Positions 22,704 to 31,212 are shown, counted from the first letter of the stretch. The stretch is 56,890 nt of DNA from an uncultured Collinsella sp. (GCA_900544225.1 UQUD01000001.1:1-56890), one strand, 5' to 3'. Notes: generated from the sequence alone by a model not told the origin. A program made the numbers and translations.

Positions 22704-23084
22704 CTACTGCATGGTTTCGGGGGCTACCAGGTCGAGCATCTCGTGCAGTTTGTCGCGCGTGACGCCCAGGGTTTCGGCTTGGCTCGCCGCTTTCGCAAGT
22801 AGCTCTTCGATATGGCAGAGCTGGTTTTCGCGCAAGAGTTCCTGGTTGCCCTCGGCGACAAAGCAGCCCTTGCCCTGCACGGTGCAGATAAACCCGAGTT
22901 GCTCTAGGTCGGCGTAGGCGCGCTTGGTGGTGATGACGCTCACACCCAGGTCGCTCGCGAGTGCACGGATGCTGGGGAGTTTGGCTCCCGCAGTGAGCGT
23001 GCCCGAAAGGATTTGAGCTTTGACCTGCGAGGATATCTGTTCGTATATGGGCTTATCGCTCGAGTTGGATAGGATGATGTCGAC
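22704..23084 (-). CDS. GntR (YtrA subfamily) regulator with non-canonical GTC start
   Basis: Hand translation (V)DIILSNSSDKPIYEQISSQVK...LPSIRALASDLGVSVITTKRAY. AAGGAG lies 5 nt before GTC, with an in-frame TAA directly upstream. Confidence 0.8.
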   Translation of the reverse strand, partial: VDIILSNSSDKPIYEQISSQVKAQILSGTLTAGAKLPSIRALASDLGVSVITTKRAYADLEQLGFICTVQGKGCFVAEGNQELLRENQLCHIEELLAKAASQAETLGVTRDKLHEMLDLVAPETMQ

Positions 23085-23110
23085 AGCGGCTCCTTAGCTG
23101 TTGGCTACAC

Positions 23111-23161
23111 GTGTATATAACCGGTAAGCACAGTATATATACACTATGCACAGTTATGCAA
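23111..23161 (-). promoter_or_regulatory. promoter and YtrA-type operator of the gntR-ABC operon
   Basis: Minus strand TTGCAT-18-TATACT; inverted repeat GTGTATATA (23111-19) / TATATACAC (23136-44). Confidence 0.6.
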
Positions 23162-23209
23162 GAGCTAAATGTGGAATAGCCCATCGACGCCGCGCTTGCT
23201 CCAAAACAA

Positions 23210-23504
23210 TCTCAATCTGTAACATCTGGGTCCGTTTTTGGTCGCCAGCTGTTACAGATTGAGATGTTATTTTCCCGCCTGCCTATTTGTCTCAATCTGT
23301 AACAGTAAGAGTCGATTTGCGCGGCTAGATGTTACAGAACGAGACATTGGCTGCCTGCCTTTCCGTTTATCTCGATTTGTAACAGCTAGACCCAATTTGG
23401 GCGGTCAGGTGTTACAGATTGAGATTGTGCCGGCGGACAAGTTCGTTTGTCTCAATCTGTAACATCTGGGTCCGTTTTGAGTCGCCTGCTGTTACAGATT
23501 GAGA
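23210..23504. repeat. array of eight 15-bp repeats in alternating orientation with 25-bp spacers
   Basis: TCTCAATCTGTAACA at 23210, 23290, 23370 (2 mismatches), 23450. Reverse complement at 23250, 23330 (2 mismatches), 23410, 23490. Confidence 0.95.
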
Positions 23505-23649
23505 CAGTCTGCTGCAGAATACTTTCGATAACTAGCCGTTCACGTTCTGACTGATGAATTTGTCCTGATAGGCGCCCTAGAGCGGGATTTCGCGGCTACA
23601 ATAGTGCGGTTACAACGACGTAATGCACTCAATGCAAGAAAGGATCCGC

Positions 23650-25263
<1,614 letters not shown>

Positions 25264-31034: not shown

Positions 31035-31095
31035 ACGCTCTCAATCTCTAACATGCTCTTTTGTGCTTATTTGCGCAGACGATGATACTCCTAAT

Positions 31096-31159
31096 CGCCT
31101 AGTCATTGGGGACGTTCTAAAACGATTACTCATTCAAGAACGTCCCCAATGACTAGGCG
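31096..31159. repeat. REP-like palindrome, TTGGGGACGTTCT family
   Basis: CGCCTAGTCATTGGGGACGTTCT...AGAACGTCCCCAATGACTAGGCG. Confidence 0.9.
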
Positions 31160-31212
31160 GGGAAGGCGTGCGACAATGGTGGGCGTTGTGTTGTTCGCGC
31201 TAAGGAGTTGCC

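Follow-up and report, generated by a model that had tools for sequence, protein, structure and literature searches.

An array of alternating 15-mers between gntR and prfC in a Collinsella genome is probably one cluster of a genus-wide family of REP/REPIN-like palindromes

Introduction

What are eight copies of one 15-mer doing between two divergent genes, in alternating orientation and at an exact 40-bp period? The question is raised by positions 23210–23504 of a 56,890-nt stretch of DNA from an uncultured Collinsella sp. (GCA_900544225.1 UQUD01000001.1:1-56890), the whole of which we refer to as the window. A sequence-only reading of the locus had taken it for an orphan array of a trans-acting system, and had offered as examples an element akin to bacterial interspersed mosaic elements (BIMEs) or REPINs that is spread by a nuclease, a set of invertible recombination sites, a phased protein-binding scaffold, or a multi-hairpin RNA processed into short units. 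The computational analysis reported here points, with a probability that we put at about 0.7, to the array being one cluster of a genus-wide family of extragenic palindromes in Collinsella, which resemble repetitive extragenic palindromic (REP) sequences and REPINs (REP doublets forming hairpins) and lie in phased, BIME-like clusters.

Dispersal of the repeat in the genome and the genus

In the window, TCTCAATCTGTAACA is found at 23210, 23250 and onward in 40-bp steps to 23490, on strands + - + - + - + -, with every one of the seven spacers 25 nt long, just as the sequence-only reading had reported. Six of the copies are exact, and two (at 23330 and 23370) have two mismatches each. When up to three mismatches were allowed, the window gave nine matches, compared with a mean of 0.76 in 100 dinucleotide-preserving shuffles of it, none of which reached nine. 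The likeness noticed earlier between spacers 1 and 7 is real as well (22/25 identical, 0.88). Taken as a whole, the array is a row of four 55-nt palindromic units, each made of a 15-nt arm, a 25-nt centre and a second 15-nt arm, which are set 80 bp apart with 25-nt linkers between them. Tandem Repeats Finder reported nothing for the array because its 80-bp units are only 71–95% alike.

The array is no orphan. In the window's own genome (G000; 1.99 Mb in 159 contigs) the 15-mer has 126 copies at up to two mismatches, compared with 0 and 1 for a reversed control pattern. All but 4 of these copies (122/126) sit in hairpin units, of which there are 62, in 21 clusters of 1–5 units that are always whole. 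In 21/21 clusters, successive copies start 40 or 41 nt apart with +/- alternation, and the ++ steps of 32 and 8 nt that turn up in five rows of the match table are off-register matches with three mismatches inside ordinary units. No called gene contains any of the 21 clusters, and one cluster shares 13 nt with the end of an 87-aa open reading frame (ORF) call. By crude gene calls based on ORFs and on GC content at third codon positions (GC3), 8 clusters are in convergent, 7 in tandem and 3 in divergent settings, the window array among the last, and 3 are at contig ends. Clusters often start 7–76 nt past a stop codon, and 15 of the 18 for which both neighbours were called are downstream of at least one gene.

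Outside this genome, the family was found in 22/24 congeners and in 0/16 genomes of other families of the same order. A larger sample gave the same picture, with the unit pattern in 349/369 same-genus species and in 0/29 genomes from 5 sister genera. Exact units number 12–62 per species in all but three of the 349 carriers, and those three have one or two. Named genome records with the unit are nearly all Collinsella, C. aerofaciens isolates among them. The family has been inherited vertically through hundreds of species, and the placing of the array in a BIME/REPIN-like class has proved right: the copies are scattered, lie outside genes, form palindromes and alternate in orientation within clusters. 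A search of 50,697 phage records gave no match. Among plasmid records, a 900-kb C. aerofaciens replicon matches in 29 places and the rest are weak, chance-level hits, while ten IMG/VR contigs carry units, mostly near contig ends.

Some individual loci are of interest in their own right. At one locus of the window's genome (L096, G000:C30:11300-14000), a gene for a 368-aa AAA/STAND-like ATPase is bracketed by direct repeats, each holding one family unit: a 129-nt pair that is 95% identical (796-924 / 2218-2346) and a 66-nt pair that is 97% identical (985-1050 / 2326-2391). This looks like a gene inserted or duplicated through recombination at the repeats, and unit pairs 1.2–1.5 kb apart recur in other Collinsella records. 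At another locus (L098, G000:C12:21900-26100), a tRNA-Ser gene with a single unit lies in a region that is 100% identical over 1.2 kb, and 98.5–99% identical over 4.2 kb, between species; the gntR-prfC region of the species that share it is only 86–87% identical to the window, which suggests that the tRNA-Ser region was recently transferred between species. Lastly, in a genome that is available as one contig (G212:C1, 2.31 Mb, dnaA at 1.75 Mb), 15/17 cluster loci lie within 700 kb of dnaA, and the stretches from +300 to +920 kb and past -700 kb hold none; the count, made post hoc, has a rough binomial p of ~0.014.

Conservation of arms and spacings

Aligning 54 units of the window's genome, oriented by their central A-run, gave the arm consensus TCTCRATCTGTAACA, followed by a 25-nt centre and then by the reverse complement of the arm. 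The symmetry of the 15-mer itself goes no further than an inner TGTnACA; it is the pair, of 55–63 nt, that forms the palindrome, which has a consensus foot of (TTTG)TCTC...GAGA(CAAA) and is often lengthened outward by TTTG/CAAA and inward by nCTAG/CTAGn. Thirteen of the 15 arm positions are nearly invariant, while position 5 is A or G at about 50:50 and position 4 is variable too. The inner 15 nt of the centre are GC-rich on either side of a run of 3–5 A (or T), and centre positions 12–14 are A or T in 96–98% of 189 distinct 80-bp units, with the A on either strand. Linkers have a weak oriented consensus of their own, T-rich beside GAGA, GC-rich in the middle and with GTTTG beside TCTC. Units occur singly or head-to-tail in runs of up to five, and it is the head-to-tail arrangement with linkers of 25 or 26 nt that produces the 40-bp alternation.

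The spacing is close to absolute. Of the 388 distinct units pooled from all loci collected, 381 have a centre of 25 nt, 2 have one of 24 nt and 5 have one of 26 nt; the 259 distinct linkers pooled in the same way comprise 162 of 25 nt, 86 of 26 nt (248/259 together) and 11 of other lengths. Sequences drift within these fixed lengths, and the earlier view that the geometry is under selection is upheld. In the A/T content of centres and linkers, period 10 has the largest amplitude (0.102 vs 0.03–0.09 for seven other periods, a comparison made without a null model); it is not the dominant harmonic of the A/T content of the whole unit.

We compared variable sites within two groups of species, each group sharing one array architecture. 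Only 6/208 sites vary in the arm core (2.9%), compared with 38/199 in centres (19%, a count that includes one replaced unit), 23/151 in linkers (15%) and 75/287 in flanks (26%); arm positions 4–5 vary at 7/32 sites (22%). The difference between the arm core and centres plus linkers is strong (Fisher, p = 6e-8), and that between the arm core and the flanks is stronger still (p = 1e-13). Thirteen of the 15 arm positions and all spacings are under purifying constraint, while centres and linkers drift. Since old, position-fixed units keep their arm core amid this drift, turnover from a master copy cannot explain it, and either purifying selection or very local gene conversion is needed.

The arms appear to be read as sequence and not as pairs. 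The T-A to C-G change in copies 4 and 5 that had been taken for compensatory turned out to be the common A/G polymorphism at position 5, where the two arms agree in 35/62 cases across centres (Fisher p 0.45) and in 15/41 across linkers (Fisher p 0.12). Other departures from the arm consensus are matched in the partner arm in 2 cases vs 42 unmatched across the centre, and in 0 vs 29 across linkers, and the suggested pairing across the even spacers falls with these counts. Symmetric centre positions, likewise, show no pairing above expectation, with positions 1-25 and 4-22 below it.

The orientation of the units appears to be free. A-run and T-run centres stand at 28:26 in the window's genome, both kinds occur within single clusters, and linker orientation is independent of centre orientation. 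There is no bias of the A-run strand in this genome towards the G-rich strand (31:25) or the dominant coding strand (31:25, p 0.50), and the two strands of the one-contig genome G212 have 18 CAAA-extended arms each. A 19:6 orientation bias, counted by eye for tandem-gene settings alone, did not hold up when the count was made more fully.

Variation at the gntR-prfC interval

By anchoring on both genes we recovered 47 gntR-prfC intervals, in which the number of units ranges from 0 to 5. No unit is present at 21 loci (interval 98–100 nt), one at 1 locus (210 nt), two at 2 loci (273–274 nt), three at 4 loci (353–356 nt), four at 18 loci (427–450 nt) and five at 1 locus (553 nt), and flank identity to the window is ~90–100% across all unit counts. 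When the centres and linkers of the orthologous arrays were clustered by similarity into a module map, the arrays were found to draw on a limited set of modules, and to differ where a unit plus linker had been deleted, where one unit had been replaced, or where two architectures were combined in a mosaic. The window's lineage has a copy of its first unit in fourth place, where two loci of close relatives (L038 and L039) have another centre; unit 4 of the window is a module replacement in that lineage. The sequence-only reading had advised a comparison of this interval across strains for gain, loss or inversion of units, and in the comparison of species gain and loss were seen and, among the 26 unit-bearing arrays, inversion was not.

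RAYT-like genes as candidate partners

The window's genome has three genes with a Y1_Tnp domain (Pfam scores of 44.4, 30.6 and 26.6 bits, all above the cut-off of 23), which we call C5-type, C9-type and C80-type. Each encodes a protein of 263–270 aa with a C-terminal helix-turn-helix (HTH) region. With the model for REP-associated tyrosine transposases (RAYTs), NF047646, the three score 59.9, 55.0 and 30.5 bits, all below its cut-off of 80. A profile of the three proteins and six Collinsella homologues, compared with E. coli TnpA-REP (PDB 4ER8), gave an E of 0.007, with the HUH and Tyr motifs aligned.

The C5-type and C9-type proteins retain the HUH and Tyr motifs. Orthologues of the C5-type gene were found in 11/15 repeat-rich species, two of the copies being broken, and in 0/25 repeat-free or low-copy species. 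A search of 40 genomes gave no orthologue of the C9-type gene, the best match being 57% identical. As a separate observation, this gene (G000:C9:17340-18149) is bracketed, in the manner of TIRYTs, by inverted copies of a different family, which begins GGTAGTCAATTTGGGACGGGGC (GGTAG) and has ~17 copies; positions 31094–31160 of the window hold a near-perfect long palindrome (arms of ~22 nt, spacer of ~22 nt) whose arms resemble that family.

The C80-type gene (G000:C80:4143-4952), single-copy and RAYT-like, resembles the repeat in its distribution. Orthologues at E ≤ 1e-60, 71–100% identical, are present in 336/369 same-genus species and in 0/29 genomes of other genera; set against the repeat, they are present in 336/346 repeat-rich species, in 0/20 repeat-free species and in 0/3 species with one or two units. 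The median ratio of nonsynonymous to synonymous substitution rates (dN/dS) is 0.21 (44 pairs, 253 codons), by which measure the gene is under purifying selection. Of ten orthologues examined, only that of G212 retains the HUH histidines together with the tyrosine, and in the protein of the window's genome Y-V-D replaces HUH and Ser replaces Tyr.

A number of results weigh against such a partner. The histidines, the catalytic tyrosine or both are missing in 9/10 C80-type orthologues, which excludes this protein as the present-day mobilising nuclease in those species. The 15-mer flanks 0/3 Y1 genes of the window's genome and was found in 0/20 Y1 neighbourhoods (±1.5 kb) in 14 repeat-rich species. 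Ten of the 346 repeat-rich species lack the C80-type gene, three of them having no detectable homologue to the query, and still have 19–37 exact units. Moreover, the repeat-free species are deep outgroups (prfC ~84% identical vs 97–99% within the repeat-rich set), so that the co-distribution is worth about a single evolutionary event, and the same pattern would be seen for any clade-specific gene. We therefore treat the C80-type gene as a lead and not as a finding; that its protein is the partner of the repeat is conceivable and, in our judgement, doubtful. The proposal that a nuclease spread the array is likewise left with no cognate enzyme tied to the repeat.

A protein-binding reading of the family

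On the reading preferred here, each arm is a putative sequence-specific recognition site for a protein, and the paired, phased geometry with a strand-indifferent A/T tract at the exact centre would answer to the needs of that protein or complex. Constraint on the arm sequence, exact spacings, the strand-indifferent A/T tract and free orientation are, we infer, fitted best by a protein that reads double-stranded DNA, next by one that reads hairpins of single-stranded DNA, and worst by a function in RNA. Reading of double-stranded DNA is a tentative choice, at rather less than even odds, and recognition of single-stranded hairpins is possible and on balance unlikely. The phased protein-binding scaffold that had been proposed for the array is a live reading. 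BIMEs are bound by host proteins such as IHF, gyrase and Pol I. The family may first have been spread by a RAYT-type HUH (Y1) enzyme, for which the C80-type protein would be the best candidate. No role specific to gntR or prfC is evident for the array, as 21/47 orthologous loci lack it.

An improbable extension of this reading would have a REPIN-RAYT-type system moved from transposition to host function, with a catalytically dead RAYT-like HTH protein that selection maintains, or another conserved factor, binding the invariant 15-mers. Pairs of 15-mers 40 bp apart round an A/T tract, in phased 80-bp runs, could then build up a nucleoprotein structure, wrapped or bridged, in the space between genes, such as an insulator of topology or transcription. 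If true, this would explain why the arm sequence and every spacing have been kept in hundreds of Collinsella species amid drift elsewhere.

Several points tell against present mobility of the family or limit what can be argued about structure. At both the gntR-prfC and the tRNA-Ser locus, empty and filled alleles differ without clean boundaries or a target duplication: the boundaries are ragged, 379 bp standing against 28 bp at gntR-prfC and the tRNA-Ser locus showing a block of 139 bp. The replaced centre of G021 is single in that genome and absent from three others searched, and identical centres at unlinked loci of the window's genome were not found. As for the arms, biased gene conversion, and not functional selection, could contribute to their conservation. 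An invariant arm core is also silent on pairing, and a hairpin role in single-stranded DNA or RNA is compatible with it. The nested centre positions 6-18 and 7-17 have a Watson-Crick excess (z 3.7 and 4.1, from 144 position pairs scanned), which hints at, and does not establish, a tiny helix inside the centre on its A-run strand.

Alternative explanations

The strongest rival takes the units for selfish, non-autonomous elements now being copied by an active Y1 (HUH) transposase, as in REPIN-RAYT systems, and holds that the arms are conserved by replacement from a master copy. We think this unlikely. Doublet units, clusters, extragenic sites and the near-absence of singlets do form the REPIN pattern, there are three RAYT-like genes of which two keep their catalytic motifs, and exact unit numbers vary between species. 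Single-copy, vertically inherited RAYTs with long-lived REPIN populations are, moreover, described by Bertels and Rainey. The defining association of gene and flanking repeat fails, however, both in the 20 neighbourhoods and at the three genes here; the C9-type gene is flanked by a different family and has no orthologue, and the C5-type gene is patchy and sometimes broken. In addition, there are no near-identical units at unlinked loci, and orthologous old units hold their arm core while centres and flanks diverge, which master-copy turnover leaves unexplained.

A function at the RNA level, in which the hairpins would be transcribed as part of 3' or 5' untranslated regions and would serve as terminators, as stabilisers of mRNA or as a processed multi-hairpin RNA, is in our view more improbable still. 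Such a function would fit the frequent position of clusters shortly past a stop codon, the weak covariation at two centre positions on the A-run strand, and a strong predicted fold: the window array has a z of -10.9 when folded as DNA and reaches -148.5 kcal/mol (z -12.7) as RNA, with many competing alternative pairings that arise from the like arms throughout it. Yet the asymmetric centres and linkers face either way relative to the flanking genes and are mixed within clusters, and a processed multi-hairpin RNA is unlikely because centres face either way within a single array. Arm changes are uncompensated, three clusters, the window array included, stand between divergent genes, and 22900–23800 holds no U-tract, 0 terminator-like sites and no promoter-like site. 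No Rfam 15 family matched at its gathering threshold (best 24 vs 80 bits), and the matches are generic hairpin matches to microRNA models. RNA-library contigs of 19.7 and 12.8 kb from two studies of one organism span gntR, a related array and prfC, a length that may reflect DNA in the libraries, while the short RNA-library contigs of a second organism break off at 23037 and start again near 23566, with the array uncovered between them; neither observation speaks for or against transcription.

The units could also be miniature inverted-repeat transposable elements (MITEs), which we consider very unlikely. Terminal inverted arms of 15–24 bp round a short variable core would suit this, and other MITE-like families are present in the same genomes. 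Against it, the flanks extend the palindrome (TTTG...CAAA or AANA...TNTT) where direct target duplications would be expected of a MITE, and only 4 copies lie outside units, while no copy marks a transposase gene end. A strictly fixed unit length and tandem clusters in phase are atypical of MITEs.

There is scarcely any case for the invertible recombination sites that had been suggested, in which 25-nt segments between inverted 15-mers would flip by site-specific recombination. Inversion would give centres and linkers in both orientations, independently and at unchanged length, as is observed. However, a comparison of the 26 unit-bearing orthologous arrays between species showed no inverted module, no recombinase recurs nearby, and 25 nt is very short for an invertible segment.

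Least credible of the functional alternatives is a local operator array for the divergent gntR-ABC operon, for prfC or for both, which the sequence-only reading had kept in reserve for a single invariant locus: the array does stand between two divergent genes and its arm holds a TGTnACA inverted core, a shape common in operators, but 20 other clusters lie beside unrelated genes and 21/47 orthologous intervals have no array between flanks that are 91–100% identical. A CRISPR array is ruled out, in agreement with the sequence-only reading, by the alternating orientation, the lack of a phage match and the lack of an adjacent cas gene.

Relation to known repeat systems

BIMEs are described in a passage of Nunvar et al. 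(2010, PMC2817692) as clustered, regularly spaced REPs in alternating orientation. Like the REPs and BIMEs of E. coli and other Proteobacteria, the Collinsella family consists of high-copy extragenic palindromes, often just downstream of genes, in regularly spaced alternating clusters with two kinds of linker and a unit number that varies between strains. It differs in that a REP is by itself an imperfect palindrome of 20–40 nt, whereas here the 15-mer is not a palindrome and the 55-nt pair is. The foot of the palindrome also lacks the GTAG or CGTC that tags the REP superfamilies in the portion of Di Nocera et al. (2013) that concerns them, the lengths vary much less (98% of centres have 25 nt), an actinobacterium is the host, and no repeat-flanked cognate RAYT was found. 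The descriptive marks of REPs and BIMEs are present (extragenic position, multiple copies, an inverted-pair unit, phased alternation), and those of the characterised RAYT-linked families, the GTAG/CGTC tag and the flanking RAYT, are absent.

The likeness to the REPIN-RAYT systems of Pseudomonas and Enterobacteria lies in the inverted-doublet unit with its spacer, in the rarity of singlets, in clustering, in long vertical persistence and in a single-copy RAYT-like gene of the same phyletic range. By the account in PMC5581495, as far as it bears on this point, a cognate RAYT gene is flanked by the repeat; unlike such genes, the RAYT-like gene of Collinsella is unflanked, lacks catalytic residues in 9/10 cases and has a C-terminal HTH, and old units are conserved in place and not turned over. 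Subclass 2.1 of the TnpA-REP proteins, in the part of Quentin et al. (2018, PMC6006769) that defines it, combines a Y1 HUH domain with a C-terminal DnaA-C/HTH-like region, and no REP-like sequences are reported to adjoin the gene. The three Collinsella proteins share this domain make-up, by which they are putative members of subclass 2.1; the C9-type copy, between inverted copies of another repeat, is TIRYT-like in that respect too. With CRISPR the family shares short conserved repeats and variable spacers of constant length, but its repeats alternate and its spacers have a family consensus and are inherited as orthologues. From MITEs it is set apart by flanks that are inverted and not direct, and by having no copy at the end of a transposase gene.

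Full-text literature searches found no description of the family, papers that name both Collinsella and REP doing so in other connections, and it appears to be undescribed; the supplementary tables of PMC8040213, a survey of structured RNAs, lie outside that search and could list the hairpin. What sets the family apart is its near-absolute spacing, the constraint on its arms without compensation in pairing, and a co-distributed RAYT-like gene that is mostly catalytically dead. It extends REP/BIME-like architecture to the Coriobacteriia, in a genus that is among the most species-rich and medically discussed of the human gut. It also offers a clean case for studying repeat function, with ~20 clusters per genome, natural alleles of 0–5 units, an invariant arm core, exact spacings, and a candidate partner that has lost its catalytic residues in most species and kept them in at least one. 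On the practical side, the clusters could be used as variable-number markers for strain typing, and are likely spots for assembly breaks or false structural-variant calls in metagenomes.

Setting of the array in the window

The array stands in a 560-bp gap between the divergent gntR operon and prfC (Table 1). Genes for an ABC (ATP-binding cassette) ATPase and an ABC-2 permease accompany the regulator gene on the minus strand. No nuclease, recombinase or cas gene adjoins the array, and in this, as in the identity of the neighbours, the earlier description was accurate.

Table 1. Positions in the window of the array, its parts and the genes on either side.
Feature	Position	Strand	Domain evidence
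Whole cluster: 4 palindromic units and 3 linkers, 80-bp period (eight 15-mers, 40-bp period)	23210..23504		
Unit 1: arm 23210-23224, 25-nt centre with central T-run on + strand, arm 23250-23264	23210..23264		
Linker 1, 25 nt; T-rich beside left unit, ..TTTG end beside right unit	23265..23289		
Unit 2; right arm 23330-23344 has two mismatches, at variable arm positions 4-6	23290..23344		
Linker 2, 25 nt	23345..23369		
Unit 3; left arm 23370-23384 has two mismatches	23370..23424		
Linker 3, 25 nt	23425..23449		
Unit 4; centre 22/25 identical to unit 1 centre	23450..23504		
Short GntR-family (YtrA-like) regulator gene, first of ABC-transporter operon; reads away from array	22704..23093	-	PF00392, 59.3 bits
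prfC (peptide chain release factor 3, RF3); reads away from array	23650..25263	+	GTP_EFTU, RF3_C

The frame of the GntR-family gene is open for 129 codons and has no ATG, GTG or TTG between the upstream stop and residue 50, while a good AAGGAG site stands 11–14 nt ahead of two ATC codons; this points to a non-canonical start or to a sequence error. Directly upstream of the gene and outside the array, positions 23093–23150 hold an AT-rich inverted repeat (…ACACGTGTATATA … TATATATACACT…), which is more likely than the 15-mers to be the operator for the GntR regulator.

Other repeats in these genomes

In the repeat-free congener G396 (49% GC), a search of the first 400 kb for a diverged version of the family found nothing related and only other MITE-like repeats. 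In the window's genome, a word around AAAATAAACCTGTCCCTTTTTGG occurs 9–10 times in the first 409 kb, and MITE-like elements of ~170 nt in G396 have ends related to it (TTTTGACAGAAACGGGCAATTTGGCAG). A third hairpin family, in which CCACCACAAAGG and CCTTTGTGGTGG enclose a loop of ~8 nt, has 63 arm matches there at up to two mismatches and comes within ~60 nt of 6/21 clusters; examples in G000 are at C11:17892, C15:25984-26001, C30:12314 and 13655, C39:15298, and C43:15606 and 15976.

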